The notes under the pieces are model-generated. The model was not told the origin of the DNA and ran no database searches. It saw nothing but the letters and a program-made list of their open reading frames with translations. Positions 1 to 19,451 of a DNA stretch of 19,451 bases are shown one piece after another. Position 1 is the stretch's first letter, and every line of letters starts with the position of its first letter. The stretch lies in IMG/VR virus record IMGVR_UViG_2563366888_000003; one strand, written 5' to 3'. The DNA comes from a virus. Taxonomy: Duplodnaviria; Heunggongvirae; Uroviricota; Caudoviricetes. Both the position numbers and the translations under genes were made by a program.

Positions 1-120
1 CCAATCTTTGGAGCAATGGAACAAATTGTCGCCCATTGTGAGTCATATTCGCTCTGACTTTCCAGAACCATACGGACTGCCCGTTGACGGACTTCGGGGG
101 AAAAACGAGTATTTTTAGTC
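1..120 (-). CDS. IS3-family transposase OrfA, N-terminal 40 codons (partial, runs off window start)
   Basis: Minus-strand translation from the ATG at 118-120 gives [41 protein letters not shown], the helix-turn-helix N-terminus typical of IS3-family OrfA (IS629-like). The frame is open to the window edge. Confidence 0.8.
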
Positions 121-176
121 ATCCTGTTTACCTCTTTCTCAGGAAGTTTAGTCTCCAGGATTCCCGGGGCGGTTCA
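1..176 (-). mobile_element. IS3-family insertion sequence (IS629-like), left terminal segment; element continues beyond window start
   Basis: Reverse complement of 121-176 reads TGAACCGCCCCGGGAATCCTGGAGACTAAACTTCCTGAGAAAGAGGTAAACAGGAT followed by the transposase ATG, which I recognise as an IS629-type left end. The element terminus (TGAACC on the minus strand) lies at 171-176. Identification is from memory, not a database search. Confidence 0.75.
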
Positions 177-256
177 GAGATAACAATCAACTAATACTGT
201 TTTGTTGATTTTTGCTTGTAATTGGCGTTCTGGTCTGATTTTTGTGGAGTAAGTTG

Positions 257-640
257 ATGCGTGATATTCAGATGGTTCTTGAGCGTTGGGGAGCGTGGGC
301 GGCTAATAATCATGAAGATGTGACCTGGTCGTCCATTGCCGCCGGTTTTAAGGGATTAATTACTTCAAAAGTAAAATCTCGCCCGCAATGTTGTGACGAT
401 GACGCTATGATCATTTGCGGGTGCATGGCCCGTCTGAAAAAGAACAACAGCGATTTGCACGATTTATTAGTAGATTATTATGTAGTCGGTATGACATTCA
501 TGTCACTGGCAGGTAAGCATTGCTGCTCTGATGGTTATATCGGGAAAAGGTTACAGAAGGCTGAGGGCATAATTGAAGGGATGTTAATGGCATTAGATAT
601 CCAGTTAGAGATGGATATCGTTGTTAATAACTCTAATTAA
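257..640 (+). CDS. Q: Late-gene antiterminator Q (phage 82 / DLP12 QuuD-type), 127 aa
   Basis: Translation [34 protein letters not shown]... with Cys-rich motifs, recognised as a QuuD/Q82-family antiterminator. ATG at 257 chosen with GGAG 8 nt upstream; the six-frame track start at 242 is a TTG. TAA stop at 638-640. Confidence 0.85.
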
Positions 641-660
641 TATGCCAATTGTTTACTAAA

Positions 661-691
661 AATTATTAAAAATGGGGCGTTGAGACGCCCC
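661..691 (-). terminator. Candidate rho-independent terminator for the minus-strand porin transcript
   Basis: GC-rich stem GGGGCG (674-679) / CGCCCC (686-691) with a 6-nt loop. Read on the minus strand the hairpin is followed by ATTTTTAATAA (complement of 663-673). Confidence 0.45.
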
Positions 692-779
692 CAAAAATAA
701 AGGGTAATATATAACAGAAGGTTTATATAGTTAGAAGCAAGGTTGTGCTTCTAAAGGAAGTGGCTTGAGGGAGCCACTT

Positions 780-819
780 ATATGTTGGGGAGGCAACGCC
801 TCCCGCAACATATCTTTTT
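780..819 (+). terminator. Candidate rho-independent terminator on plus strand downstream of Q (tR'-like), lying in the porin 3' UTR
   Basis: Imperfect 15-bp stem ATATGTTGGGGAGGC (780-794) / GCCTCCCGCAACATAT (798-813), loop AAC, followed by CTTTTT (814-819). Confidence 0.4.
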
Positions 820-829
820 CGTAATCAGA

Positions 830-1912
830 TTAGAACTGGTAAACCAGACCTACAGCGACGATGTCGTCGGTATCAATATCAGCTGTTTTGGTAAACTTAC
901 TATCGTCAATTAAGTTGATTTTGTAATCAACAAAAGTGGACATGTTTTTATTAAAGTAGTAAGTAGCACCGACATCGACATACTTGACTAAGTCTCGGTC
1001 ACCATGAACACCAAGGTCTTTACCTTTTGACTGAAGGTAAGCAACAGATGGGCGCAGACCGAAGTCAAACTGATATTGTGCTACTGCTTCAAAGTTTTGT
1101 GCTTTGTTTGCAATATGGTTATTACCAAAAACGGTCATATTCTGAGTTTCAGAATATGTGGTAGCCAGATAGATATTGTTCGCATCATATTTCAGGCCTG
1201 CAGCCCATACTTCCGCATTTTTGCCGGAGGCATTGAATTTGCTCTTACCATAGGCGACCTGACCGTCAGTGCGATCTGATTTAGCATAGGTTGCACCCAC
1301 GCCGAATCCTTCATACTCATAAGTAGTGGAGAAACCGAAACCATCACCATTGGCTTCAGTTACGTCAGTGCGGTCATTTTTACCCTGATACTGAGCAGCA
1401 AAGTTCAGGCCATCGACCAGACCAAAGAAGTCGTTGTTACGATAAGTTGCAACACCAGTAGTGCGACCAGTCATGAACACATCTGTTTGGGTCCAGGTAT
1501 CACCACCGAATTCTGGCAGAACGTCAGTCCACGCACCGATGTCGTATGCTACACCGTAGTTACGGCCGTAATCGATTGAGCCGTAATCACCAAATTTCAG
1601 GCCTGCAAATGCAAGACGGGTTTTGTCTTTGGAAGAACCTTGAGATTCAGCGCGGTTGCCTTTGAATTCATATTCCCACTGACCGAAACCAGTCAGTTGA
1701 TCGTTGATTTGGGTTTCACCTTTGAAGCCAAGACGGGCATAAGTAGTATCACCATCATCTGCATCATTAGAGGAGAAGTAGTGCTTAGCATTAACTTTCC
1801 CGTACAGATCCAGCTTGTTACTGTCTTTATTATAAATTTCAGCTGCCTGAGCAGACATCGCCATCAGTACTGATGCAGCTACAGCAGAAATTGCCACTGT
1901 TAATTTTTTCAT
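830..1912 (-). CDS. nmpC: Phage-encoded general porin (OmpC/PhoE family; Lc of phage PA-2 / NmpC of DLP12 type), 360 aa precursor
   Basis: Translation from the ATG at 1910-1912 begins [23 protein letters not shown] followed by AEIYNKD (signal peptide with AQA cleavage site), carries OmpC-like motifs and ends in the beta-barrel C-terminal motif YQF. The six-frame track ORF extends 20 codons further upstream (to 1972), which I reject in favour of the signal-peptide start. Confidence 0.9.
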
Positions 1913-2340
1913 CGTGAGCCCTTTTTTTGAACTATTATTAAAAAATGATGTCACTGCGCGATAAATATTCATCTAATCAATGTGATTATTTCAAGATGTA
2001 AGTTTTGGTTTCTCGTTTGATTTGTGAAGTAGATCTCTATTTTTATCTGAACTTTTTTCTATCGAATCCTATTCATGGCTCTTGGCTGAATAAAAATAAA
2101 TCTATTAGCCAATTTATATTAATGGCTGTTATTTATAAGTGCTCTATAATTTGAAGGTTCAATTTAAATCGGCTAAAAATAACGCTGGAAATTATTTGTT
2201 GGTTATTTGTTGAGATTTGCTTATGTATTTGTAGTGGTGTTTTCAATACTCGGTAGCATTCTCGCAAATATCATTTAGTGGTTTACGTACGTAAAAAATT
2301 GGTTATGCTGTTAAGAGTGGTTACTTCGTCACACAGCTTA

Positions 2341-2372
2341 AACCCGCCGTCGAGCGGGTTTTTCCATTTTTT
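2341..2372 (+). terminator. Rho-independent terminator upstream of the lysis cassette
   Basis: Stem AACCCGC (2341-2347) / GCGGGTT (2354-2360), loop CGTCGA, followed by TTTCCATTTTTT (2361-2372). Confidence 0.5.
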
Positions 2373-2484
2373 GAGTCTCGATATTAGCTGATAACCCAAT
2401 ACCTGAGTTATTCACTGACTCCGAGTCTGTTACGTTTCGTAGTATTCCCTCAATTTACACCCGCTTTGTCTGCGAGGTGGGGTT

Positions 2485-2700
2485 ATGAAATCCATGGATA
2501 AGTTAACAACGGGTGTCGCCTATGGCACCTCAGCAGGTAGTGCCGGGTACTGGTTTTTACAGCTGCTAGATAAAGTCACGCCCTCACAGTGGGCGGCAAT
2601 TGGAGTGCTGGGTAGCCTGGTATTTGGCCTGCTGACGTACCTGACAAACCTTTATTTCAAGATTAAAGAAGATAAGCGCAAGGCTGCGAGAGGTGAATAA
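2485..2700 (+). CDS. S: Class II holin, phage 21 S21-type pinholin with dual-start motif (antiholin from Met1, holin from Met4)
   Basis: [71 protein letters not shown]: two transmembrane segments, charged C-terminal tail, Met1-Lys-Ser-Met4 dual start. RBS GAGGTGGGG upstream. The stop overlaps the R start (TAATG). Confidence 0.9.
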
Positions 2701-3197
2701 TGCCTCCATCATTACGAAAAGCCGTTGCTGCTGCTATTGGTGGCGGAGCAATTGCTATAGCATCAGTGTTAATTACTGGCCCAAGTGGTAACGATGGTCT
2801 GGAAGGTGTCAGCTACATACCATACAAAGATATTGTTGGTGTATGGACTGTATGTCACGGGCATACAGGAAAAGACATCATGCTCGGTAAAACGTATACC
2901 AAAGCAGAATGCAAAGCACTCTTGAATAAAGACCTTGCCACTGTCGCCAGACAAATTAACCCGTACATCAAAGTCGATATACCGGAAACAACGCGCGGCG
3001 CTCTTTACTCATTCGTTTACAACGTGGGTGCTGGCAATTTCAGAACATCGACGCTTCTTCGCAAAATAAACCAGGGCGATATCAAAGGCGCATGTGATCA
3101 GCTACGTCGCTGGACATATGCTGGCGGTAAGCAATGGAAAGGTCTCATGACTCGTCGTGAGATTGAGCGTGAAATCTGTTTGTGGGGTCAGCAATGA
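2700..3197 (+). CDS. R: SAR endolysin (phage 21 R21-type lysozyme with N-terminal signal-anchor-release domain)
   Basis: Gly/Ala-rich N-terminal segment [20 protein letters not shown] followed by the T4-lysozyme-like catalytic triad positions E35, D44, T50 counted in the translation. Coupled to the holin stop. Confidence 0.9.
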
Positions 3198-3655
3198 ACA
3201 GAGTAACCGCGATTATCTCCGCTCTGGTTATCTGCATCATCGTCTGCCTGTCATGGGCTGTTAATCATTACCGTGATAACGCCATTACCTACAAAGCCCA
3301 GCGCGACAAAAATGCCAGAGAACTGAAGCTGGCGAACGCGGCAATTACTGACATGCAGATGCGTCAGCGTGATGTTGCTGCGCTCGATGCAAAATACACG
3401 AAGGAGTTAGCTGATGCGAAAGCTGAAAATGATGCTCTGCGTGATGATGTTGCCGCTGGTCGTCGTCGGTTGCACATCAAAGCAGTCTGTCAGTCAGTGC
3501 GTGAAGCCACCACCGCCTCCGGCGTGGATAATGCAGCCTCCCCCCGACTGGCAGACACCGCTGAACGGGATTATTTCACCCTCAGAGAGAGGCTGATCAC
3601 TATGCAAAAACAACTGGAAGGAACCCAGAAGTATATTAATGAGCAGTGCAGATAG
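3194..3655 (+). CDS. Rz: Rz i-spanin (inner-membrane spanin subunit)
   Basis: [26 protein letters not shown]... with N-terminal TM segment and coiled-coil periplasmic domain, near-identical to lambda Rz as I recall it. ATG at 3194 overlaps the R stop (ATGA). The track start at 3182 is a GTG. Confidence 0.9.
3414..3596 (+). CDS. Rz1: Rz1 o-spanin lipoprotein, fully embedded in the +1 frame of Rz
   Basis: [24 protein letters not shown]... with lipobox VVGC, Pro-rich mature region [15 protein letters not shown], 60 aa, matching lambda Rz1. Confidence 0.88.
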
Positions 3656-3686
3656 AGCTGCCCATATCGATGGGCAACTCATGCAA

Positions 3687-3980
3687 TTATTGTGAGCAAT
3701 ACACACGCGCTTCCAGCGGAGTATAAATGCCTAAAGTAATAAAACCGAGAAATCCATTTACGAATGTTTGCTGGGTTTCTGTTTTAACAACATTTTCTGC
3801 GCCGCCACAAATTTTGGCTGCATCAACAGTTTTCTCCTGTCCAATTCCCGAAACGAAGAAATGATGGGTGATGGTTTCCTTTGGTGTTACTGCTGTCGGT
3901 TTGTTTCCAACAGTAAACGTCTGTTGAGCACATCCTGTAATAAGCATTGCCAGAGCGGCAGAAAACAACATTTTTTTCAT
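3687..3980 (-). CDS. bor: Bor outer-membrane lipoprotein (serum-resistance moron), 97 aa
   Basis: Translation from the ATG at 3978-3980: MKKMLFSAALAMLITGCAQQTFTV... with lipobox LITGC, near-identical to lambda Bor. The track ORF extends 16 codons upstream; the lipoprotein signal-peptide start was chosen. Confidence 0.9.
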   Translation of the reverse strand: MKKMLFSAALAMLITGCAQQTFTVGNKPTAVTPKETITHHFFVSGIGQEKTVDAAKICGGAENVVKTETQQTFVNGFLGFITLGIYTPLEARVYCSQ

Positions 3981-4341
3981 CTTATTATCCTGCATTGTTA
4001 AAAACGGCAGAATCCTATGTGACAACAATTAAACGATAGTTAAATGGATTGATGAAAATTAAAACTATATAGGTGGATGCTCAGCCTATTGGAGGAGGGG
4101 GGGGCACTCAGAATCCTGTGGAATGAAATAAACCGCTCTATCTGTCCATTACCCTTTTAGCTGCGCTGTATCGTCGCCGTATTCCCGCATTAACCATGAC
4201 CGTAGCCCGACGGGGAATTCCTTCTGCGTGAGTGTGCGGGAATAATCAAAAACGATGCACACCGGGTTTTACTGTGCTGACAGACGCAGGGTTACCCTCA
4301 TAGTCGCTTTTCCGGTGCGATGGTGGAAGAAACCGGGATGT

Positions 4342-4536
4342 TCATCCATCATCACTTTGGATTGATGTATATGCTCTCTTTTCTGACGTTAGTCTCCGAC
4401 GGCAGGCTTCAATGACCCAGGCTGAGAAATTCCCGGACCCTTTTTGCTCAAGAGCGATGTTAATTTGTTCAATCATTTGGTTAGGAAAGCGGATGTTGCG
4501 GGTTGTTGTTCTGCGGGTTCTGTTCTTCGTTGACAT
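4342..4536 (-). CDS. Small conserved cos-proximal protein (DUF3950 / YlcI-like, possible ribbon-helix-helix DNA-binding protein), 64 aa
   Basis: MSTKNRTRRTTTRNIRFPNQMIEQINIALEQKGSGNFSAWVIEACRRRL...; the same small ORF sits at the right end of lambda just before cos, as I recall. Basic N-terminus then a short helix-rich core. Confidence 0.7.
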   Translation of the reverse strand: MSTKNRTRRTTTRNIRFPNQMIEQINIALEQKGSGNFSAWVIEACRRRLTSEKRAYTSIQSDDG

Positions 4537-4699
4537 GAGGTTGCCCCGTATTCAGTGTCGCTGATTTGTATTGTCTGAAGTTGTTTTTACGTTAAGTTGA
4601 TGCAGATCAATTAATACGATACCTGCGTCATAATTGATTATTTGACGTGGTTTGATGGCGTAGATGCACGTTGTGACATGTAGATGATAATTATTATCA

Positions 4700-4905
4700 T
4701 TTTGCGGGTCCTTTCCGGCGATCCGACAGGTTACGGGGCGGCGACCTCGTGGGTTTTCGCTATTTATGAAAATTTTCCGGCTTAAGGCGTTTCCGTTCTT
4801 CTTCGCCGTAACTTCATGTTTTTATTTAAAACACCCCCTAAAAAGAAAGGAAACGACAGGTGCTGAAAACGGGCTTTTTGGCCTCTGTCGTTTCCTTTCT
4901 CTGTT
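4700..4905 (+). other. cos site: cosQ, cosN nicking site (GGGCGGCGACCT at 4736-4747) and cosB with R3 (4788-4799), R2 (4844-4855, inverted) and R1 (4889-4900)
   Basis: The lambda 12-nt cohesive-end sequence GGGCGGCGACCT occurs exactly at 4736-4747, flanked upstream by lambda right-end-like sequence and downstream by three CGTTTCC-type Nu1-binding repeats and an AT-rich IHF-like segment, ending at the Nu1 start. Confidence 0.85.
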
Positions 4906-4924
4906 TTTGGCCGTGGAATGAACA

Positions 4925-5444
4925 ATGGAAGTCAACAAAAAGCAGCTGGCTGACATTTTCGGTGCGAGTATCCGTACCATTCAGAACTGGCAGGAACAGG
5001 GAATGCCCGTTCTGCGAGGCGGTGGCAAGGGTAATGAGGTGCTTTATGACTCTGCCGCCGTTATAAAATGGTATGCCGAAAGGGATGCTGAAATTGAGAA
5101 CGAAAAGCTGCGCCGGGAGGTTGAAGAACTGCGGCAGGCCCGCGAGGCAGATCTCCAGCCAGGGACTATTGAGTACGAACGCCATCGACTTACGCGTGCG
5201 CAGGCCGACGCACAGGAACTGAAGAATGCCAGAGACTCCGCTGAAGTGGTGGAAACCGCATTCTGTACTTTCGTGCTGTCGCGGATCGCAGGTGAAATTG
5301 CCAGTATTCTCGACGGGATCCCCCTGTCGGTGCAGCGGCGTTTTCCGGAACTGGAAAACCGACATGTTGATTTCCTGAAACGGGATATCATCAAAGCCAT
5401 GAACAAAGCAGCCGCGCTGGATGAACTGATACCGGGGTTGCTGA

Positions 5445-5470
<26 letters not shown>
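4925..5470 (+). CDS. nu1: Terminase small subunit Nu1
   Basis: MEVNKKQLADIFGASIRTIQNWQEQGMPVLRGGGKGNEVLYDS... near-identical to lambda gpNu1 (winged HTH N-terminus), 181 aa. Confidence 0.95.
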
Positions 5471-9151
<3,681 letters not shown>

Positions 9152-9171
<20 letters not shown>

Positions 9172-10471
9172 TCTCCCGCATATTGCCAGCATGGCCTTTA
9201 ATGAGCCGCTGATGCTTGAACCCGCCTATGCGCGGGTTTTCTTTTGTGCGCTTGCAGGCCAGCTTGGGATCAGCCGCCTGACGGATGCGGTGTCCGGTGA
9301 CAGCCTGACTGCCGGAGAGGCACCCGCGACGCTGGCGTTATCCGTTAATGATGACGGACCACGACAGGCCCGCAGTTATCAGGTCATGAATGGCATCGCC
9401 GTGCTGCCGGTTTCCGGCACGCTGGTCAGCCGGACGCGGGCGCTGCAGCCGTATTCGGGGATGACCGGTTACAACGGCATTATCGCCCGTCTGCAACAGG
9501 CTGCCAGTGACCCGATGGTGGACGGCATTCTGCTGGATATGGACACGCCAGGCGGAATGGTGGCGGGGGCATTTGACTGCGCTGACATCATCGCCCGTGT
9601 GCGTGACATAAAACCGGTATGGGCGCTGGCCAACGACATGAACTGCAGTGCAGGTCAGCTGCTTGCCAGTGCCGCCTCCCGGCGTCTGGTCACGCAGACC
9701 GCCCGGACAGGCTCCATCGGCGTCATGATGGCTCACAGTAATTACGGTGCTGCCCTGGAGAAACAGGGTGTGGAAATCACGCTGATTTACAGCGGCAGCC
9801 ATAAGGTGGATGGCAATCCCTACAGCCATCTTCCGGATGACGTCCGGGAGACACTGCAGTCCCGGATGGACGCAACCCGCCAGATGTTTGCGCAGAAGGT
9901 GTCGGCATATACCGGCCTGTCTGTGCAGGCTGTGCTGGATACCGAGGCTGCAGTGTACAGCGGTCAGGAGGCCATTGATGCCGGACTGGCTGATGAACTT
10001 GTTAACAGCACCGATGCGATCACCGTCATGCGTGATGCACTGGATGCGCGTAAATCCCGTCTCTCAGGAGGGCGAATGACCAAAGAGACTCAATCAACAA
10101 CTGTTTCAGCCACTGCTTCGCAGGCTGACGTTACTGACGTGGTGCCAGCGACGGAGGGCGAAAACGCCAGCGCGGCGCAGCCGGACGTGAACGCGCAGAT
10201 CACCGCAGCGGTTGCGGCAGAAAACAGCCGCATTATGGGGATCCTCAACTGTGAGGAGGCTCACGGACGCGAAGAACAGGCGCGCGTTCTGGCAGAAACC
10301 CCCGGAATGACCGTGGAAACGGCCCGCCGCATTCTGGCTGCAGCACCACAGAGTGCACAGGCGCGCAGTGACACTGCGCTGGATCGTCTGATGCAGGGGG
10401 CACCGGCACCGCTGGCTGCAGGTAACCCGGCATCTGATGCCGTTAACGATTTGCTGAACACACCAGTGTAA
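9152..10471 (+). CDS. C: Capsid maturation protease / minor capsid protein C (GTG start)
   Basis: GTG at 9152 gives (M)TAELRNLPHIASMAFNEPLMLEPAYARVFF..., matching lambda gpC. It overlaps the B 3' end. The longer track ORF from 9005 is upstream read-in within B. Confidence 0.9.
9866..10471 (+). CDS. nu3: Scaffolding protein Nu3, in-frame internal start within C
   Basis: Internal ATG at 9866 in the C frame gives MDATRQMFAQKVSAYTGLSVQ..., 201 aa, as for lambda Nu3, sharing the C stop. Confidence 0.8.
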   Translation: MDATRQMFAQKVSAYTGLSVQAVLDTEAAVYSGQEAIDAGLADELVNSTDAITVMRDALDARKSRLSGGRMTKETQSTTVSATASQADVTDVVPATEGENASAAQPDVNAQITAAVAAENSRIMGILNCEEAHGREEQARVLAETPGMTVETARRILAAAPQSAQARSDTALDRLMQGAPAPLAAGNPASDAVNDLLNTPV

Positions 10472-10480
10472 GGGATGTTT

Positions 10481-10813
10481 ATGACGAGCAAAGAAACCTT
10501 TACCCATTACCAGCCGCTGGGCAACAGTGACCCGGCTCATACCGCAACCGCGCCCGGCGGATTGAGTGCGAAAGCGCCTGCAATGACCCCGCTGATGCTG
10601 GACACCTCCACCCGTAAGCTGGTTGCGTGGGATGGCACCACCGACGGTGCTGCCGTTGGCATTCTGGCGGTTGCTGCTGACCAGACCAGCACCACGCTGA
10701 CGTTCTACAAGTCCGGCACGTTCCGTTATGAGGATGTGCTCTGGCCGGAGGCTGCCAGCGACGAGACGAAAAAACGGACCGCGTTTGCCGGAACGGCAAT
10801 CAGCATCGTTTAA
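10481..10813 (+). CDS. D: Head decoration protein D
   Basis: [41 protein letters not shown]..., 110 aa, matches lambda gpD. ATG at 10481; the track start 10475 is two codons upstream. Confidence 0.93.
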
Positions 10814-10830
10814 CTTTACCCTTCATCACT

Positions 10831-10855
10831 AAAGGCCGCCTGTGCGGCTTTTTTT
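10831..10855 (+). terminator. Terminator-like hairpin with U-tract in the D-E intergenic spacer
   Basis: Stem GCCGC (10835-10839) / GCGGC (10844-10848), extendable by A-T pairs, loop CTGT, followed by TTTTTTT (10849-10855), 14 nt before the E start codon. Confidence 0.4.
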
Positions 10856-10868
10856 ACGGGATTTTTTT

Positions 10869-11894
10869 ATGTCGATGTACACAACCGCCCAGCTGCTGGC
10901 GGCAAATGAGCAGAAATTTAAGTTTGATCCGCTGTTTCTGCGTCTCTTTTTCCGTGAGAGCTATCCCTTCACTACGGAGAAAGTCTATCTCTCACAAATT
11001 CCGGGACTGGTAAACATGGCGCTGTACGTTTCGCCGATTGTTTCCGGTGAGGTTATCCGTTCCCGTGGCGGCTCCACCTCTGAATTTACGCCGGGATATG
11101 TCAAGCCGAAGCATGAAGTGAATCCGCAGATGACCCTGCGTCGCCTGCCGGATGAAGATCCGCAGAATCTGGCGGACCCGGCTTACCGCCGCCGTCGCAT
11201 CATCATGCAGAACATGCGTGACGAAGAGCTGGCCATTGCTCAGGTCGAAGAGATGCAGGCAGTTTCTGCCGTGCTTAAGGGCAAATACACCATGACCGGT
11301 GAAGCCTTCGATCCGGTTGAGGTGGATATGGGCCGCAGTGAGGAGAATAACATCACGCAGTCCGGCGGCACGGAGTGGAGCAAGCGTGACAAGTCCACGT
11401 ATGACCCGACCGACGATATCGAAGCCTACGCGCTGAACGCCAGCGGTGTGGTGAATATCATCGTGTTCGATCCGAAAGGCTGGGCGCTGTTCCGTTCCTT
11501 CAAAGCCGTCAAGGAGAAGCTGGATACCCGTCGCGGCTCTAATTCCGAGCTGGAGACAGCGGTAAAAGACCTGGGCGAAGCGGTGTCCTATAAGGGAATG
11601 TATGGCGATACGGCGATCGTCGTGTATTCCGGACAGTACGTGGAAAACGACGTCAAAAAGAACTTCCTGCCGGACAACACGATGGTGCTGGGGAACACTC
11701 AGGCACGCGGTCTGCGCACCTATGGCTGCATTCAGGATGCGGACGCACAGCGCGAAGGTATTAACGCCTCTGCCCGCTACCCGAAAAACTGGGTGACCAC
11801 CGGCGATCCGGCGCGTGAGTTCACCATGATTCAGTCAGCACCGCTGATGCTGCTGGCTGACCCTGATGCGTTCGTGTCCGTACAACTGGCGTAA
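10869..11894 (+). CDS. E: Major capsid protein E
   Basis: MSMYTTAQLLAANEQKFKFDPLFLRLFFRESYPFTTEKVYL..., 341 aa, matches lambda gpE. The track ORF start at 10842 lies inside the upstream hairpin and is rejected. Confidence 0.95.
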   Translation: MSMYTTAQLLAANEQKFKFDPLFLRLFFRESYPFTTEKVYLSQIPGLVNMALYVSPIVSGEVIRSRGGSTSEFTPGYVKPKHEVNPQMTLRRLPDEDPQNLADPAYRRRRIIMQNMRDEELAIAQVEEMQAVSAVLKGKYTMTGEAFDPVEVDMGRSEENNITQSGGTEWSKRDKSTYDPTDDIEAYALNASGVVNIIVFDPKGWALFRSFKAVKEKLDTRRGSNSELETAVKDLGEAVSYKGMYGDTAIVVYSGQYVENDVKKNFLPDNTMVLGNTQARGLRTYGCIQDADAQREGINASARYPKNWVTTGDPAREFTMIQSAPLMLLADPDAFVSVQLA

Positions 11895-11935
11895 TCATGG
11901 CCCTTCGGGGCCATTTTCTCTCTGTGGAGGAGTCC

Positions 11936-12334
11936 ATGACGAAAGATGAACTGATTGCCCGTCTCCGGTCGCTGGGTGAACAACTGAACCGTGATGTCAG
12001 CCTGACGGGGACGAAAGAAGAACTGGCGCTCCGTGTGGCAGAGCTGGAAGAGGAGCTTGATGACACGGATGAAACTGCCGGTCAGGACACCCCTCTCAGC
12101 CGGGAAAATGTGCTGACCGGACATGAAAATGAGGTGGGATCAGCGCAGCCGGATACCGTGATTCTGGATACGTCTGAACTGGTCACGGTCGTGGCACTGG
12201 TGAAGCTGCATACTGATGCACTTCACGCCACGCGGGATGAACCTGTGGCATTTGTGCTGCCGGGAACGGCGTTTCGTGTCTCTGCCGGTGTGGCAGCCGA
12301 AATGACAGAGCGCGGCCTGGCCAGAATGCAATAA
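11936..12334 (+). CDS. FI: DNA-packaging accessory protein FI
   Basis: MTKDELIARLRSLGEQLNRDVSLTGTKEELALRVAELEEELDD..., 132 aa, RBS GGAGGAG upstream. Matches lambda gpFI. Confidence 0.92.
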   Translation: MTKDELIARLRSLGEQLNRDVSLTGTKEELALRVAELEEELDDTDETAGQDTPLSRENVLTGHENEVGSAQPDTVILDTSELVTVVALVKLHTDALHATRDEPVAFVLPGTAFRVSAGVAAEMTERGLARMQ

Positions 12335-12345
12335 CGGGAGGCGCT

Positions 12346-12699
12346 GTGGCTGATTTCGATAACCTGTTCGATGCTGCCATTGCCCGCGCCGATGAAACGA
12401 TACGCGGGTACATGGGAACGTCAGCCACCATGACATCCGGTGAGCAGTCAGGTGCGGTGATACGTGGTGTTTTTGATGACCCTGAAAATATCAGCTATGC
12501 CGGACAGGGCGTGCGCGTTGAAGGCTCCAGCCCGTCCCTGTTTGTCCGGACTGATGAGGTGCGGCAGCTGCGGCGTGGAGACACGCTGACCATCGGTGAG
12601 GAAAATTTCTGGGTAGATCGGGTTTCGCCGGATGATGGCGGAAGTTGTCATCTCTGGCTTGGACGGGGCGTACCGCCTGCCGTTAACCGTCGCCGCTGA
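12346..12699 (+). CDS. FII: Head completion / head-tail connector protein FII
   Basis: 117 aa, MADFDNLFDAAIARADETIRGYMGTSATMTSGEQ..., matches lambda gpFII. Confidence 0.92.
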   Translation: MADFDNLFDAAIARADETIRGYMGTSATMTSGEQSGAVIRGVFDDPENISYAGQGVRVEGSSPSLFVRTDEVRQLRRGDTLTIGEENFWVDRVSPDDGGSCHLWLGRGVPPAVNRRR

Positions 12700-12710
12700 A
12701 AGGGGGATGT

Positions 12711-13289
12711 ATGGCCATAAAAGGTCTTGAGCAGGCCGTTGAAAACCTCAGCCGTATCAGCAAAACGGCGGTGCCCGGTGCCGCCGCAATGGCCATTAAC
12801 CGCGTTGCTTCATCCGCGATATCGCAGTCTGCGTCACAGGTTGCCCGTGAGACAAAGGTACGCCGGAAACTGGTAAAGGAAAGGGCCAGGCTGAAAAGGG
12901 CCACGGTCAAAAATCCGCAGGCCAGAATCAAAGTTAACCGGGGGGATTTGCCCGTAATCAAGCTGGGTAATGCGCGGGTTGTCCTGTCCCGCCGCAGGCG
13001 TCGTAAAAAGGGGCAGCGTTCATCCCTGAAAGGTGGCGGCAGCGTGCTTGTGGTGGGTAACCGTCGTATTCCCGGCGCGTTTATTCAGCAACTGAAAAAC
13101 GGCCGGTGGCATGTTATGCAGCGTGTGGCCGGGAAAAACCGTTACCCCATTGATGTGGTGAAAATCCCGATGGCGGTGCCGCTGACCACGGCGTTTAAAC
13201 AGAATATTGAGCGGATACGGCGTGAACGTCTTCCGAAAGAGCTGGGCTATGCGCTGCAGCATCAACTGAGGATGGTAATAAAGCGATGA
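12711..13289 (+). CDS. Z: Tail completion protein Z
   Basis: 192 aa, MAIKGLEQAVENLSRISKTAVPGAAAMAINRVASS..., matches lambda gpZ. Confidence 0.92.
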   Translation: MAIKGLEQAVENLSRISKTAVPGAAAMAINRVASSAISQSASQVARETKVRRKLVKERARLKRATVKNPQARIKVNRGDLPVIKLGNARVVLSRRRRRKKGQRSSLKGGGSVLVVGNRRIPGAFIQQLKNGRWHVMQRVAGKNRYPIDVVKIPMAVPLTTAFKQNIERIRRERLPKELGYALQHQLRMVIKR

Positions 13290-13681
13290 AACATACTGAA
13301 CTCCGTGCAGCCGTACTGGATGCACTGGAGAAGCATGACACCGGGGCGACGTTTTTTGATGGTCGCCCCGCTGTTTTTGATGAGGCGGATTTTCCGGCAG
13401 TTGCCGTTTATCTCACCGGCGCTGAATACACGGGCGAAGAGCTGGACAGCGATACCTGGCAGGCGGAGCTGCATATCGAAATTTTCCTGCCTGCTCAGGT
13501 GCCGGATTCAGAGCTGGATGCGTGGATGGAGTCCCGGATTTATCCGGTGATGAGCGATATCCCGGCACTGTCAGATTTGATCACCAGTATGGTGGTCAGT
13601 GGCTATGACTACCGGCGCGACGATGATGCGGGCCTGTGGAGTTCAGCCGATATGACTTATGTCATTACCTATGAAATGTGA
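13286..13681 (+). CDS. U: Tail terminator protein U
   Basis: 131 aa, [37 protein letters not shown]..., ATGA overlap with Z. Matches lambda gpU. Confidence 0.92.
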
Positions 13682-13688
13682 GGACGCT

Positions 13689-14429
13689 ATGCCTGTACCA
13701 AATCCTACAATGCCGGTGAAAGGTGCCGGGACCACCCTGTGGGTTTATAAGGGGAGCGGTGACCCTTATGCGAATCCGCTTTCAGACGTTGACTGGTCGC
13801 GTCTGGCAAAAGTTAAAGACCTGACGCCCGGCGAACTGACCGCTGAGTCCTATGACGACAGCTATCTCGATGATGAAGATGCAGACTGGACTGCGACCGG
13901 GCAGGGGCAGAAATCTGCCGGAGATACCAGCTTCACGCTGGCGTGGATGCCCGGAGAGCAGGGGCAGCAGGCGCTGCTGGCGTGGTTTAATGAAGGCGAT
14001 ACCCGTGCCTATAAAATCCGCTTCCCGAACGGCACGGTCGATGTGTTCCGTGGCTGGGTCAGCAGTATCGGTAAGGCGGTGACGGCGAAGGAAGTGATCA
14101 CCCGCACGGTGAAAGTCACCAATGTGGGCCGTCCGTCGATGGCAGAAGATCGCAGCACGGTAACAGCGGCAACCGGCATGACCGTGACGCCTGCCAGCAC
14201 CTCGGTGGTGAAAGGGCAGAGCACCACGCTGACCGTGGCCTTCCAGCCGGAGGGCGTAACCGACAAGAGCTTTCGTGCGGTGTCTGCGGATAAAACAAAA
14301 GCCACCGTGTCGGTCAGTGGTATGACCATCACCGTGAACGGCGTTGCTGCAGGCAAGGTCAACATTCCGGTTGTATCCGGTAATGGTGAACTTGCTGCGG
14401 TTGCAGAAATCACCGTCACCGACAGTTAA
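13689..14429 (+). CDS. V: Major tail tube protein V (with C-terminal Ig-like domain)
   Basis: [31 protein letters not shown]..., 246 aa, RBS GAGGA upstream. The track start 13659 is rejected in favour of the lambda-equivalent ATG at 13689. Confidence 0.93.
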
Positions 14430-14444
14430 TCCGGAGAGTCAGCG

Positions 14445-14867
14445 ATGTTCCTGAAAACCGAATCATTTGAACATAACGGCGTGACCGTCACGCTTTCTGA
14501 ACTGTCAGCCCTGCAGCGTATTGAGCATCTTGCCTGGTTGAAAGAGCAGGAAAAAAAGGCTGAATCCAGTGGCAACCTGCAGGTGTCTGTAGAGGCGCTT
14601 ATCAGAGGCGGGGCGTTTCTGGTGGCGATGTCTCTGTGGCATAACCATCCACAGAAGACAAAGCTGCCGTCCATGAATGAAGCCATTACGCAGATTGAGC
14701 AGGAAGTGCTTACCACCTGGCCCACGGAGGCAATTGCTCAGGCTGAAAACGTGGTGTTACGTCTGTCCGGAATGTCTGAGTTTGTGGTGAATAATGCCCC
14801 TGAACAGGCAGAGGACGCCGGGCCTGCAGAGCCTGTTTCTGCGGGAAAGTGTTCGACGGTGAGCTGA
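14445..14867 (+). CDS. G: Tail assembly chaperone G
   Basis: MFLKTESFEHNGVTVTLSELSALQRIEHLAWLKEQ..., 140 aa, matches lambda gpG. Contains the slippery heptamer near its 3' end. Confidence 0.92.
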   Translation: MFLKTESFEHNGVTVTLSELSALQRIEHLAWLKEQEKKAESSGNLQVSVEALIRGGAFLVAMSLWHNHPQKTKLPSMNEAITQIEQEVLTTWPTEAIAQAENVVLRLSGMSEFVVNNAPEQAEDAGPAEPVSAGKCSTVS

Positions 14868-15283
14868 GTTTTGCCCTGAAACTGGCGCGTGAGATGGGGC
14901 GACCCGACTGGCGCGCCATGCTTGCCGGGATGTCATCCACGGAGTATGCCGACTGGCACCGCTTTTACAGTACCCATTATTTTCATGATGTTCTGCTGGA
15001 TATGCACTTTTCCGGGCTGACGTACACCGTACTCAGCCTGTTTTTCAGCGATCCGGATATGCATCCGCTGGATTTCAGTCTGCTGAACCGGCGCGAGGCT
15101 GACGAAGAGCCTGAAGATGATGTGCTGATGCAGAAAGCGGCAGGGCTTGCCGGAGGCGTTCGTTTTGGCCCGGACGGGAATGAAGTTATCCCCGCTTCCC
15201 CGGATGTGGCGGACATGACGGAGGATGACGTAATGCTGATGACAGTATCAGAAGGGATCGCAGGAGGAGTCCGGTATGGCTGA
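14445..15283 (+). CDS. GT: Tail assembly chaperone fusion G-T produced by programmed -1 ribosomal frameshift
   Basis: Slippery heptamer GGGAAAG at 14843-14849, 5 codons before the G stop. The -1 frame (track ORF 14849..15283) stays open to 15283 and overlaps the H start, exactly as in lambda G/GT. Confidence 0.85.
14843..14849 (+). other. Programmed -1 frameshift slippery site GGGAAAG (G to GT)
   Basis: The heptamer is seen directly at 14843-14849, and the downstream -1 frame is open for about 144 codons. Confidence 0.85.
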
Positions 15284-17831
15284 ACCGGTAGGCGATCTGG
15301 TCGTTGATTTGAGTCTGGATGCGGCCAGATTTGACGAGCAGATGGCCAGAGTCAGGCGTCATTTTTCCGGTACGGAAAGTGATGCGAAAAAAACAGCGGC
15401 AGTCGTTGAACAGTCGCTGAGCCGACAGGCGCTGGCTGCACAGAAAGCGGGGATTTCCGTCGGGCAGTATAAAGCCGCCATGCGTATGCTGCCTGCACAG
15501 TTCACCGACGTGGCCACGCAGCTTGCAGGCGGGCAAAGTCCGTGGCTGATCCTGCTGCAACAGGGTGGTCAGGTTAAGGACTCCTTCGGCGGGATGATCC
15601 CCATGTTCAGGGGGCTTGCCGGTGCGATCACCCTGCCGATGGTGGGGGCCACCTCGCTGGCGGTGGCGACCGGTGCGCTGGCGTATGCCTGGTATCAGGG
15701 CAACTCAACCCTGTCCGATTTCAACAAAACGCTGGTCCTTTCCGGCAATCAGGCGGGACTGACGGCAGATCGTATGCTGGTCCTGTCCAGAGCCGGGCAG
15801 GCGGCAGGGCTGACGTTTAACCAGACCAGCGAGTCACTCAGCGCACTGGTTAAGGCGGGGGTAAGCGGTGAGGCTCAGATTGCGTCCATCAGCCAGAGTG
15901 TGGCGCGTTTCTCCTCTGCATCCGGCGTGGAGGTGGACAAGGTCGCTGAAGCCTTCGGGAAGCTGACCACAGACCCGACGTCGGGGCTGACGGCGATGGC
16001 ACGCCAGTTCCATAACGTGACGGCGGAGCAGATTGCGTATGTTGCTCAGTTGCAGCGTTCCGGCGATGAAGCCGGGGCATTGCAGGCGGCGAACGAGGCC
16101 GCAACGAAAGGGTTTGATGACCAGACCCGCCGCCTGAAAGAGAACATGGGCACGCTGGAGACCTGGGCAGACAGGACAGCGCGGGCATTCAAATCCATGT
16201 GGGATGCGGTGCTGGATATTGGTCGTCCTGATACCGCGCAGGAGATGCTGATTAAGGCAGAGGCTGCGTTTAAGAAAGCAGACGACATCTGGAATCTGCG
16301 CAAGGATGATTATTTTGTTAACGATGAAGCGCGGGCGCGTTACTGGGATGATCGTGAAAAGGCCCGTCTTGCGCTTGAAGCCGCCCGAAAGAAGGCTGAG
16401 CAGCAGACTCAACAGGACAAAAATGCGCAGCAGCAGAGCGATACCGAAGCGTCACGGCTGAAATATACCGAAGAGGCGCAGAAGGCTTACGAACGGCTGC
16501 AGACGCCGCTGGAGAAATATACCGCCCGTCAGGAAGAACTGAACAAGGCACTGAAAGACGGGAAAATCCTGCAGGCGGATTACAACACGCTGATGGCGGC
16601 GGCGAAAAAGGATTATGAGTCGACGCAGAAAAAGCCGTCCGGCGTGAAGGTGTCTGCGGGCGATCGTCAGGAAGACAGTGCTCATGCTGCCCTGCTGACG
16701 CTTCAGGCAGAACTCCGGACGCTGGAGAAGCATGCCGGAGCGAATGAGAAAATCAGCCAGCAGCGCCGGGATTTGTGGAAGGCAGAAAGTCAGTTCGCGG
16801 TACTGGAGGAGGCGGCACAACGTCGCCAGCTGTCCGCACAGGAGAAATCCCTGCTGGCGCATAAAGATGAGACGCTGGAGTACAAACGCCAGCTGGCTGC
16901 ACTTGGCGATAAGGTCACGTATCAGGAGCGCCTGAACGCGCTGGCGCAGCAAGCGGATAAATTCGCACAGCAGCAACGGGCAAAACGGGCCGCTATTGAT
17001 GCGAAAAGCCGGGGGCTGACTGACCGGCAGGCAGAACGGGAAGCCACGGAACAGCGCCTGAAGGAACAGTATGGCGATAATCCTCTGGCGCTGAATAACG
17101 TCATGTCAGAGCAGAAAAAGACCTGGGCGGCTGAAGACCTGCTTCGCGGGAGCTGGATGGCAGGCCTCAGGTCCGGCTGGAGCGAGTGGAAAGAGAGTGC
17201 CACGGACAGTATGTTGCAGGTTAAAAGTGCAGCCACGCAGACCTTTGATGGTATTGCGCAGAATATGGCGGCGATGCTGACCGGCAGTGAGCAGAACTGG
17301 CGCAGCTTCACCCGTTCCGTGCTGTCCATGATGACAGAAATTCTGCTTAAGCAGGCAATGGTGGGGATTGTCGGGAGTATCGGCAGCGCCATTGGCGGTG
17401 CTGTTGGTGGCGGCGAATCCGCGTCAGGCGGTACAGCCATTCAGGCAGCTGCGGCGAAATTCCATTTTGCGACCGGAGGATTTACGGGAACCGGCGGCAA
17501 ATATGAGCCAGCGGGGATTGTTCATCGTGGTGAATTTGTCTTCACGAAGGAGGCTACCAGCCGGATTGGTGTCGGCAACCTGTACCGCCTGATGCGGGGC
17601 TATGCGGAAGGTGGTTATGTGGGCGGTGCCGGAAGTCCGGCGCAGATGCGGCGGGCTGAAGGCATTAATTTTAATCAGAACAATCACGTGGTGATTCAGA
17701 ACGACGGTACGAATGGTCTGCCAGGTCCACAGATGATGAAGGCAGTGTATGACATGGCCCGCAAGGGTGCCCGTGATGAAATTCAGACACAGATGCGTGA
17801 TGGTGGCCTGTTCTCCGGAGGTGGACGATGA
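15276..17831 (+). CDS. H: Tail tape measure protein H
   Basis: 851-aa ORF, MAEPVGDLVVDLSLDAARFDEQMARVRRHFSG..., long coiled-coil central region with Gly-rich C-terminal part. Near-identical to lambda gpH. Confidence 0.95.
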   Translation: MAEPVGDLVVDLSLDAARFDEQMARVRRHFSGTESDAKKTAAVVEQSLSRQALAAQKAGISVGQYKAAMRMLPAQFTDVATQLAGGQSPWLILLQQGGQVKDSFGGMIPMFRGLAGAITLPMVGATSLAVATGALAYAWYQGNSTLSDFNKTLVLSGNQAGLTADRMLVLSRAGQAAGLTFNQTSESLSALVKAGVSGEAQIASISQSVARFSSASGVEVDKVAEAFGKLTTDPTSGLTAMARQFHNVTAEQIAYVAQLQRSGDEAGALQAANEAATKGFDDQTRRLKENMGTLETWADRTARAFKSMWDAVLDIGRPDTAQEMLIKAEAAFKKADDIWNLRKDDYFVNDEARARYWDDREKARLALEAARKKAEQQTQQDKNAQQQSDTEASRLKYTEEAQKAYERLQTPLEKYTARQEELNKALKDGKILQADYNTLMAAAKKDYESTQKKPSGVKVSAGDRQEDSAHAALLTLQAELRTLEKHAGANEKISQQRRDLWKAESQFAVLEEAAQRRQLSAQEKSLLAHKDETLEYKRQLAALGDKVTYQERLNALAQQADKFAQQQRAKRAAIDAKSRGLTDRQAEREATEQRLKEQYGDNPLALNNVMSEQKKTWAAEDLLRGSWMAGLRSGWSEWKESATDSMLQVKSAATQTFDGIAQNMAAMLTGSEQNWRSFTRSVLSMMTEILLKQAMVGIVGSIGSAIGGAVGGGESASGGTAIQAAAAKFHFATGGFTGTGGKYEPAGIVHRGEFVFTKEATSRIGVGNLYRLMRGYAEGGYVGGAGSPAQMRRAEGINFNQNNHVVIQNDGTNGLPGPQMMKAVYDMARKGARDEIQTQMRDGGLFSGGGR

Positions 17832-18157
17832 AAACCTTCCGCTGGAAAGTGAAACCCGGTATGGATGTGGCTTCGGCCCCTTCTGTAAGAAAGGTGCGCT
17901 TTGGTGATGGCTATTCCCAGCGAGCGCCTGCCGGGCTGAATGCCAACCTGAAAACGTACAGCGTGACGCTTTCTGTCCCCCGTGAGGAGGCCACGGTACT
18001 GGAGTCGTTTCTGGAAGAGCACGGGGGCTGGAAAGCCTTTCTGTGGACGCCGCCTTATGAGTGGCGGCAGATAAAGGTGACCTGCGCAAAATGGTCGTCG
18101 CGGGTCAGTATGCTGCGTGTTGAGTTCAGCGCAGAGTTTGAACAGGTGGTGAACTGA
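17828..18157 (+). CDS. M: Tail tip assembly protein M
   Basis: 109 aa, MKTFRWKVKPGMDVASAPSVRKVRFGDGYSQRAP..., ATGA overlap with H. Matches lambda gpM. Confidence 0.93.
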   Translation: MKTFRWKVKPGMDVASAPSVRKVRFGDGYSQRAPAGLNANLKTYSVTLSVPREEATVLESFLEEHGGWKAFLWTPPYEWRQIKVTCAKWSSRVSMLRVEFSAEFEQVVN

Positions 18158-18855
18158 TGCAGGATATCCGGCAGGAAACACTGAATGAATGCACCCGTGC
18201 GGAGCAGTCGGCCAGCGTGGTGCTCTGGGAAATCGACCTGACAGAGGTCGGTGGAGAACGTTATTTTTTCTGTAATGAGCAGAACGAAAAAGGTGAGCCG
18301 GTCACCTGGCAGGGGCGACAGTATCAGCCGTATCCCATTCAGGGGAGTGGTTTTGAACTGAATGGCAAAGGCACCAGTACGCGCCCCACGCTGACGGTTT
18401 CTAACCTGTACGGTATGGTCACCGGTATGGTGGAAGATCTGCAGAGTCTGGTCGGCGGAACGGTGGTCCGGCGTAAGGTTTACGCCCGTTTTCTGGATGC
18501 GGTGAACTTCGTCAACGGAAACAGTGACGCCGATCCGGAGCAGGAGGTGATCAGCCGCTGGCGCATCGAGCAGTGCAGCGAACTGAGCGCGGTGAGTGCC
18601 TCCTTTGTACTGTCCACGCCGACGGAAACGGATGGCGCTGTTTTTCCGGGGCGTATCATGCTGGCCAACACCTGCACCTGGACCTATCGCGGCGATGAGT
18701 GCGGTTATCACGGTCCGGCAGTCGCTGATGAATATGACCAGCCGACGTCCGATATCACGAAGGATAAATGCAGCAAATGCCTGAGCGGCTGTAAGTTTCG
18801 CAATAACGTCGGCAATTTTGGCGGCTTCCTTTCCATTAACAAACTTTCGCAGTAA
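18157..18855 (+). CDS. L: Tail tip protein L
   Basis: 232 aa, MQDIRQETLNECTRAEQSASVVLWEIDLTEVGGERYFF... with C-terminal Cys cluster. Matches lambda gpL. Confidence 0.93.
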   Translation: MQDIRQETLNECTRAEQSASVVLWEIDLTEVGGERYFFCNEQNEKGEPVTWQGRQYQPYPIQGSGFELNGKGTSTRPTLTVSNLYGMVTGMVEDLQSLVGGTVVRRKVYARFLDAVNFVNGNSDADPEQEVISRWRIEQCSELSAVSASFVLSTPTETDGAVFPGRIMLANTCTWTYRGDECGYHGPAVADEYDQPTSDITKDKCSKCLSGCKFRNNVGNFGGFLSINKLSQ

Positions 18856-18860
18856 ATACC

Positions 18861-19451
18861 ATGACAGAGACAGAATCAGCGATTCTGGCGCACGCCCGGC
18901 GATGTGCGCCAGCGGAGTCGTGCGGCTTCGTGGTGAGAGCGCCGGAGGGGGAAAGATATTTTCCCTGCGTGAATATTTCCGGTGAGCCGGAGGATTATTT
19001 CCGGATGGCTCCGGAGGACTGGCTGCAGGCAGAGATGCAGGGTGAGATTGTGGCGCTGGTCCACAGCCACCCCGGTGGTCTGCCCTGGCTGAGTGAGGCT
19101 GACCGGCGGCTGCAGGTGCAGAGTGATTTGCCGTGGTGGCTGGTCTGCCGGGGGACGATTCATAAATTCCGCTGTGTGCCGCATCTCACCGGGCGGCGCT
19201 TTGAGCACGGGGTGACGGACTGTTACACGCTGTTCCGGGATGCTTATCATCTGGCGGGAATTGAGATGCCGGATTTTCATCGCGAGGATGACTGGTGGCG
19301 TCACGGTCAGAATCTCTATCTGGATAATCTGGAGGCCACAGGGCTGTATCAGGTGCCGTTGTCATCAGCACAACCGGGCGATGTGCTGCTGTGCTGTTTT
19401 GGTTCATCGGTGCCGAATCATGCCGCCATTTACTGTGGTGATGGCGAGCTG
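18861..19451 (+). CDS. K: Tail tip assembly protein K (JAMM/MPN-type motif region; partial, 3' end beyond window). The conventional lambda K start corresponds to the internal ATG at 19005
   Basis: Open frame from the ATG at 18861, 6 nt after the L stop, continuous to the window end. It contains HSHPGGLPWLSEAD (JAMM-like H-x-H-x7-S-x2-D) and matches lambda gpK from MAPEDWLQAEMQGEIVALVHSHPGG onward. Not in the six-frame track, presumably because no stop falls inside the window. Confidence 0.8.
   Translation, partial: MTETESAILAHARRCAPAESCGFVVRAPEGERYFPCVNISGEPEDYFRMAPEDWLQAEMQGEIVALVHSHPGGLPWLSEADRRLQVQSDLPWWLVCRGTIHKFRCVPHLTGRRFEHGVTDCYTLFRDAYHLAGIEMPDFHREDDWWRHGQNLYLDNLEATGLYQVPLSSAQPGDVLLCCFGSSVPNHAAIYCGDGEL

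Follow-up and report, generated by a model that had tools for sequence, protein, structure and literature searches.

The porins Lc, of phage PA-2, and NmpC, of the E. coli K-12 prophage DLP12, are the classical lysogenic-conversion porins. Such phage-borne proteins have been known for decades, as have the placement of their genes, with Q on one side and the lysis genes on the other, the way they are regulated, and the RNA IpeX. In K-12, the start of the nmpC promoter, PnmpC, has been placed by 5' RACE, deletion of positions -199 to -1 abolishes its activity, and CRP, OmpR, IHF and MprA have been named as its regulators (PMC11677980). IpeX is a 167-nt part of the porin transcript that is processed out of that transcript (PMC12197685), and porins of this family are described as remodelling the cell surface, with OmpC and OmpF lowered via the IpeX RNA (PMC12197685, PMC5069750, PMC8065619).

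Late transcription under a related Q has been mapped in the Sakai Stx2 phage, where the start of the transcript was placed by dRNA-seq; its 3' end, at a distance of 258 nt, and cleavage by RNase E in GU/AUU at +173 were also mapped (Sy et al., PMC7547250). In the Stx phages (933W, VT2-Sakai/Sp5, H-19B and phi24B) the late promoter overlaps the 3' end of Q. Cargo there consists of tRNAs and stx, which come after the promoter and belong to the late transcript.

Here we compare these systems with a porin locus in a 19,451-nt stretch of viral DNA, the whole of which we call the window. We believe that the locus is a self-contained Lc/NmpC lysogenic-conversion cassette (about 619-2280, minus strand) that lies between Q and the late promoter pR', and we would put the probability of this reading at roughly 0.8.

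An intact porin of the Lc/NmpC type

The window is the right arm of a lambda-like prophage (Table 1). Across 641-2484 it is 100% identical to the chromosome of E. coli VR50, and across 174-19451 it is 97% identical to PhiR11_1 and its relatives, phages with lambda-type terminase, head and tail genes whose records give E. coli MG1655, ECOR13 or C as host. The lysis cassette (2485-3655) was assigned from Pfam and from the annotation of phage 434B. An antisense porin gene stands between a PF06530 Q and a phage-21-type holin; an earlier note on this DNA had likewise placed it between the antiterminator and the holin. GC content is 0.296 in 1913-2280, 0.43-0.44 in 2281-2484, 0.437 in the porin gene and 0.571 in the structural genes (5000-19451). 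The AT-rich flank of about 570 bp (1913-2484) described in the same note is therefore real for 1913-2280 only, and the remainder, 2281-2484, is close to the porin gene in composition.

Table 1. Features of the window, in order of position (approximate positions are marked ~)
Feature	Position	Strand	Remarks
Antiterminator Q	257-640	+	127 aa; Q21/Q933W family, PF06530
Intrinsic terminator of the porin/IpeX transcript	658-691	-	GC hairpin 691..674 and U-rich tail; terminator scan, RNA fold
Porin 3' untranslated region, probable IpeX region of DLP12/PA-2	660-829	-	Approximate, predicted ends
Terminator-like hairpin	780-819	+	Hairpin to 813; 15 bp with one bulge, then CTTTTT
Porin	830-1912	-	360 aa; mature protein 833-1843; stop codon 830-832
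Porin signal peptide	1844-1912	-	
Porin upstream region, AT-rich	1913-2280	-	GC 0.296; PnmpC within -200..-1 (1913-2112)
CRP-like site TGTGAagtagaTCTCT	~2024-2039	-	CRP site annotated in PA-2 J02580
Late promoter pR' and conserved initial transcribed region	2282-2332	+	Homology; predicted start A2316
pR' -35 element TTTACG	2282-2287	+	
pR' -10 element TATGCT	2304-2309	+	
pR' core TAAGAGTGGTTACNTNGNCAC	2312-2332	+	
Putative tR'	2340-2372	+	Hairpin AAACCCGC...GCGGGTTT (2340-2361) and T-rich tail; terminator scan
Holin/antiholin, phage-21-type	2485-2700	+	Pfam Phage_holin_2_1
Endolysin, lysozyme family	2700-3197	+	Pfam Phage_lysozyme
Rz	3194-3655	+	Pfam Phage_lysis; Rz1 embedded, 3414-3596
bor	3687-3980	-	
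ylcI-like gene	4342-4536	-	
Nu1	from 4925		

The porin reading frame as listed (830..1972, minus strand, 380 aa) begins at an upstream ATG. We place the start of the protein at the MKKL codon at 1912, giving 360 aa, because this matches the annotated start of lc and its 23-codon signal peptide in PA-2 J02580; the signal peptide itself is identical to that annotated for Lc. No frameshift or stop was found inside the reading frame, and the protein could be aligned from end to end with Lc and with NmpC restored by removal of IS5, with two in-frame indels. The claim of a complete porin with a signal peptide and a C-terminal Phe was thus correct: 360 aa are uninterrupted, the first 23 form the signal, and the protein ends in GLVYQF.

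Family models agree on the kind of protein this is. It passed the NCBIfam OmpC subfamily model (519.6 bits; cut-off 484) and covered positions 1-337 of the 337 in Pfam Porin_1 (PF00267; 502.4 bits), whereas it stayed under the equivalog cut-offs for PhoE (503.6 vs 599) and OmpF (478.7 vs 583), so that only the broader OmpC subfamily model was passed. The whole mature porin aligns with solved OmpC structures (E ~1e-136); against OmpC 2xe2, residues 24-360 align to 1-343, and LPEFGGDTW lies opposite the same motif, which holds the PEFGG of the constriction loop. From this high similarity we infer that the protein would form a trimeric 16-stranded beta-barrel diffusion channel. With the chromosomal porins OmpC, OmpF and PhoE it shares a full-length Porin_1 domain, the PEFGGD motif and the C-terminal Phe; unlike them, it is prophage-borne and appears to have its own regulatory region and 3' RNA.

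Judged by its sequence, the gene is an intact allele of the classical Lc/NmpC lysogenic-conversion porin in the PA-2/DLP12 arrangement. The NmpC used for comparison was K-12 nmpC without IS5 and without one copy of the 4-bp duplication at its target. This restored NmpC is 98.9% identical to PA-2 Lc, and the window protein is 90.4% identical to each of them over its full length. The kinship that the earlier note had proposed to check by protein comparison was therefore upheld, and gene order and flanks also match those of PA-2 and DLP12. Its further remark, that the gene is uninterrupted here and not in those two phages, holds for DLP12 of K-12, where IS5 splits nmpC after codon 346, and fails for PA-2, whose lc is itself uninterrupted.

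The locus resembles that of PA-2 in the position and orientation of the porin gene between Q and the lysis genes, in porin residues 1-98, which are identical and include the signal peptide, and in the sequences on either side: the downstream spacer is identical and the upstream region about 95% identical, late-promoter core included. It differs from PA-2 in two respects: the two in-frame indels leave the protein of the window shorter by five residues, and the stretch from the terminator hairpin to the holin is 16-17 bp longer in PA-2. With DLP12 the window shares the order Q (quuD), antisense porin (nmpC), holin, endolysin and Rz/Rz1 (essD-rrrD-rzpD), bor and ylcI. Identity to DLP12 is 189/189 in the Q-porin spacer, 200/200 upstream of the porin start codon, 567/572 in the porin-holin spacer and 382/384 nt between Q and quuD. 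Unlike the split K-12 copy of nmpC, the window copy is intact, and its interior is a different allele.

That interior makes the gene a mosaic with respect to K-12 nmpC. Identity is 99-100% in nt 1-270 and 61-82% in nt 541-1080, and the last 18 nt are identical. Against Lc there are 35 differing alignment positions, 30 of them substitutions and 5 indel positions, and the amino-acid changes fall into five patches, at mature residues 159-164, 194-204, 240-244, 280-283 and 312-324. These patches probably correspond to surface loops L4-L8 in OmpF/OmpC loop numbering. The nucleotide sequences have diverged deeply, yet amino-acid changes occur in a few patches only, a pattern that indicates purifying selection elsewhere in the protein. 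At the same time, because nt 541-1080 have diverged from nmpC and lc, properties measured for Lc may not fully transfer to this allele.

The porin transcription unit

Because of its near-identity to DLP12 and PA-2, the porin upstream region can be read through what is described for those phages, and Table 1 places PnmpC and the CRP-like site accordingly. Partial matches in 1872-2249 came not from host ompC but from the remains of another DLP12-like prophage, near fliE/yedK; derivation of the upstream region from micF-like sequence or from host ompC was rejected. When the primers of a published DLP12 reporter fragment, given as '-121 to +650', were sought in the window, the forward primer fell at 1840-1859 and the reverse primer could not be placed with up to four mismatches; the coordinates published for that fragment do not fit its amplicon.

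Downstream of the porin gene, the 189-bp spacer is identical both to the K-12 nmpC-quuD spacer and to that of PA-2, and its minus-strand RNA is predicted to fold into five hairpins (-64.7 kcal/mol; z = -10.2 vs shuffles). A search of the whole window against Rfam at gathering thresholds gave no match, and thus no confirmation of IpeX by a curated model. On the opposite strand of the same spacer there is a second terminator-like element (780-819), which was read from the sequence and is present in the RNA fold; the consensus terminator scan did not report it. This element could halt unmodified transcription coming out of Q before it reaches the porin gene. The porin cassette thus looks insulated on both sides, with the plus-strand hairpin at 780-813 and the minus-strand terminator at 691-674, where the porin transcript would stop short of Q.

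We suggest that the cassette would consist of an AT-rich regulatory region with PnmpC, the intact porin gene, a structured IpeX-like 3' untranslated region and its own terminator. In a lysogen of this prophage, the porin would be transcribed from its own promoter and inserted in the outer membrane, and the IpeX part of the transcript would lower OmpC and OmpF. The surface of the lysogen would be altered as a result, and OmpC might be lost as a receptor for other phages. Such an exclusion of OmpC-dependent phages, which the earlier note had also suggested, fits the behaviour of PA-2 and is not a new idea.

It is also conceivable that the porin gene is intact yet essentially silent cargo, which gives the lysogen no phenotype in ordinary conditions and is kept by hitch-hiking. 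K-12 does tolerate the inactivation of nmpC by IS5, and Prilipov is said to have found, in 1998, that the intact nmpC of E. coli B is quiescent. Against this, the promoter region of the window matches that of K-12 base for base, and in K-12 5' RACE readily picks up nmpC-IS5 transcripts; a large share of E. coli genomes carry the reading frame intact; and purifying selection is indicated outside the few changed patches, as described above. Lc is, moreover, a major protein of PA-2 lysogens. We therefore consider silence of the gene unlikely and prefer to regard the cassette as one that would be expressed in the lysogen.

The late promoter and transcription across the porin gene

The Q protein matches PF06530 with 179 bits and is 77-80% identical to the Q proteins of 933W, VT2-Sakai and H-19B; its match to the Q21 structures 6P18/6JNX is a distant one (E 1e-6). 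At the 3' end of the gene, similarity to the family stops at GAGATGGAT (~610-618), so that the last seven or so Q codons would belong to the variable cassette. The sequence that follows Q in the Stx phages is found elsewhere in the window. In a sensitive DNA search with 2200-2484, an 83-nt segment (2281-2363) was 77-78% identical to the extreme end of Q in Stx phages. The Stx counterpart of this segment is annotated as the late promoter in VT2-Sakai, phi24B and Ss-VASD, and as a Q-utilisation site and terminator in VT2-Sakai and phi24B; in H-19B the same promoter-homologous sequence comes directly after Q. Preserved in the alignment are the -35 element TTTACG, the block TAAGAGTGGTTAC and the hairpin AACCCGCC...GCGGGTTTTT.

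The published Sakai transcript gives this alignment its register. At the VT2-Sakai locus the -10 element occupies 724-729, and, counted from a start at 736, the end of the second annotated terminator (993) is at +258 and the GT/ATT at 907-911 falls exactly on +173. The predicted start in the window, A2316, is taken in the same register as the mapped Sakai start. The pR' core occurs once in the window (with up to three mismatches allowed), as it does once in each related locus, and in every one of DLP12, 434B, PA-2 and PhiR11_1 it falls between the porin gene and the holin gene. A simple sigma-70 consensus scan of 500-2700 found no promoter; with a threshold of 9 of 12 matches it overlooks pR' as well, which has 8 of 12, and so it is uninformative. 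Homology, with the Sakai register in support, thus points to a late promoter on the lysis-gene side of the porin. In DLP12, the site of Q action is presumably the promoter next to essD.

The window therefore shares with the Stx phages the Q family, the -35 element, the initial transcribed sequence and the first hairpin, and departs from them in layout. Instead of the canonical Q-adjacent promoter, we find 1641 bp between the Q stop codon (640) and the -35 element (2282), and this interval is filled with antisense cargo.

The hairpin at 2340-2361 is taken as tR' because it is the sole terminator-like element between the pR' start (2316) and the holin gene; it is conserved in Stx phages, DLP12, PA-2 and PhiR40_1. 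It is a candidate for the working tR' of this prophage; the 3' end mapped in Sakai is not at this first hairpin but at the second terminator, which has no counterpart here. Homology to the Stx phages ends at about 2366, so the 258-nt StxS region and the second terminator are absent from the window. On the same ground, a StxS homologue was rejected as the identity of the short pR' transcript, the StxS part lying beyond the end of the homology.

The earlier note had held that Q-modified late transcription must cross the porin gene in antisense. This obligatory antisense transcription, which was its sole mechanistically new claim, is not supported; it conflicts with where we predict the late promoter to lie. 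The sole copy of the pR' core lies in the homologous segment 2282-2366, downstream of the porin gene in the direction of late transcription. With pR' beyond the porin, Q-modified transcription need not traverse the gene. By analogy with lambda, the remaining candidate for crossing the porin in antisense would be early transcription from pR that reads out of Q under N antitermination. Upon induction, we suggest, Q would act at pR' downstream of the cassette, late transcription would start past the porin, and only the early, N-antiterminated read-through from Q would traverse the porin gene in antisense.

Could the late promoter nevertheless adjoin Q, as it does in lambda, with Q-modified polymerase transcribing antisense across the porin gene to the lysis and structural genes? 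A pR' that abuts Q is the textbook layout in lambda and the Stx phages, and 1.6 kb with its terminators is not, in principle, beyond the reach of a Q-modified polymerase. However, the family promoter core is absent near Q, its single copy being that at 2312-2332, and the entire 189-bp spacer between Q and the porin is occupied by the hairpins and terminators of the porin 3' end. The order Q, porin, core was also found in all of the 41 loci that have both a porin and a Q among the matches listed in the survey below, and a Q-type antiterminator is named in the literature as a regulator of the DLP12 S-R-Rz operon. We regard a late promoter next to Q as very improbable in this prophage and retain the position between the porin and the holin.

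Genes between Q and the late promoter in related phages

Phages with a related Q also showed other genes between Q and the promoter core, the first examples being a 148-aa ORF in PhiR40_1 and a lipocalin gene after Q in 1H12 (in the 1H12 locus no copy of the core was found within two mismatches). For this reason we scanned IMG/VR for the 21-nt core, which gave at least 120 viral loci. Among the matches listed, a Q of the family lay upstream on the same strand in 100 of 120, and the distances from the end of the Q match to the core fell into discrete classes. At least 24 loci have Stx-like spacing (42-76 bp), at least 41 have gaps of 1672-1691 bp that hold a porin, in three allele groups, and the other gaps among the matches listed range from 633 to 2480 bp. 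Q and the promoter are split in 76 of the 100 listed loci with an upstream Q. In the loci with both Q and porin, the holin match, where present, comes after the core.

Minus-strand orientation is common to most of the cargo, the longest ORFs lying on that strand in 18 of 20 representatives examined of the other gaps. Besides the porin, the gaps contain lipocalin, a small lipoprotein-like ORF, a KAP-type NTPase, an HNH protein and several two-gene sets with a membrane partner. Several of these matched candidate defence families in PADLOC: PDC-S20 (585 bits; the KAP-type NTPase), PDC-M68A (the HNH protein), PDC-S42 and PDC-M53A. We tentatively propose, at somewhat less than even odds, that in lambdoid phages of the Q933W/DLP12 family the junction of Q and pR' is a dedicated slot for accessory genes, of which the porin would be the commonest, and that these genes would be expressed in the lysogen and lie outside the late transcript. 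The proposed bounds of the slot are the conserved end of Q, GAGATGGAT, and the -35 element of the promoter. A literature search on the Q-promoter junction as a known hotspot found nothing specific.

The porin itself is widespread. Among 5426 complete E. coli genomes, 2465 carry its segment (1.84 kb, at least 80% covered); 156 records match it at 99% or more, and the protein occurs in 42 phage records, where it is mostly labelled OmpD, OmpC or NmpC. Outside the coliphage group, tblastn matches have identities of only about 64%. That the gene might be a host chromosomal ompC paralogue that merely adjoins prophage genes, as the RefSeq name 'ompC: porin OmpC' in most genomes might suggest, can be dismissed for practical purposes, given phage genes on both sides, its presence in those 42 phage records, some of which list MG1655, E. 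coli C or ECOR13 as host, and its 90% identity to the phage proteins Lc and NmpC against the 64% or so outside coliphages.

With the allele in thousands of sequenced E. coli, and with its porin type, location, regulation and RNA already known, what this analysis contributes is mainly a correction: in this phage group, cargo separates the late promoter from Q, and the porin gene would be insulated rather than overrun by late transcription. The gap cargoes that match candidate defence genes may merit a separate look. Finally, the position of the promoter matters for the annotation of late promoters in such prophages, and for the design of reporters in them.

Mosaicism of the porin gene and its traces in other genomes

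The porin gene (window 830-1912) proved to be a mosaic when compared with nmpC of the K-12 prophage DLP12 and lc of phage PA-2. Its first 270 nt at the 5' end and its final 18 nt are 99-100% identical to nmpC/lc, and identity in the interior falls to 61-82% at the nucleotide level. Five patches hold most of the amino acid changes, with few found elsewhere. The flanks of the porin gene are identical in DLP12 and the window and, together with the mosaic pattern within the gene, this points to old allelic lineages of the porin that would have been swapped through intragenic recombination.

Many E. coli genomes carry a relic of approximately 375 bp that matches the beginning of the porin gene and the region upstream of it (window 1872-2249) at 82-83% identity. 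At the one locus inspected, that of E. coli 98233 (L003 3001-3375), the relic lies between ybcM and tnpA/yedK, inside a degraded DLP12-like island from which the porin gene is gone. Records of related phages label the porin OmpD or OmpC rather than Lc/NmpC, and the automated annotation of PhiR11_1 begins it at an upstream ATG, giving a 1143-nt ORF (L002 2156-3298; window 830-1972) with 20 extra residues before the true signal peptide.

The late promoter and its first hairpin

The 1986 PA-2 record annotates two CRP sites, one of which corresponds, by our own coordinate conversion, to window 2317-2337 and coincides with the conserved late-transcript start (GTGGTTACTTCGTCACA). A role in the late promoter accounts for the conservation of this segment better than regulation of the porin by CRP does.

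The annotation of the Sakai Stx phages places a terminator at the hairpin and T-run spanning +27 to +49 (L004, the VT2-Sakai locus, 762-784). However, the mapped 3' end of their promoter-proximal RNA is at +258, beyond this hairpin, and therefore polymerase evidently passes it. In the window the first hairpin (2340-2361) is the only candidate for tR'. Downstream of the terminator hairpin and ahead of the holin gene, PA-2 and PhiR11_1 carry an extra 16-17 bp (CTGCTTTT-TTGCGATA) that both the window (at 2438/2439) and DLP12 lack.

Accessory genes around Q and the lysis cassette

Phages approximately 97% identical to the rest of the window lose similarity upstream of position 174 (window 1-173), which marks a mosaic junction shortly ahead of Q. 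Two more antisense cargo genes, bor and a ylcI-like gene, lie past the lysis cassette, an arrangement common to the window, DLP12 and 434B.

Genes of the Q-to-promoter gap and those past the lysis cassette
Gene	Location	Strand or orientation	Family
Porin	window gap, 619-2281	antisense	
Lipoprotein-like ORF	gap, among L013-L132		
KAP-type NTPase	gap, among L013-L132		PDC-S20
HNH protein	gap, among L013-L132		PDC-M68A
PDC-S42	gap, among L013-L132		
PDC-M53A	gap, among L013-L132		
306-aa ORF	gap, among L013-L132		
Two-gene sets	gap, among L013-L132		
bor, lipoprotein	window 3687-3980	-	Pfam Lambda_Bor
ylcI-like gene	window 4342-4536	-	DUF3950

Among the matches listed, the viral contigs sharing the late-promoter core (L013-L132) have Q-to-promoter gaps that fall into discrete length classes, the shortest 42 bp and the longest 2.5 kb, and the cargo they hold is of unrelated kinds and for the most part antisense. 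The gap looks like a hotspot for accessory genes or candidate defence genes.
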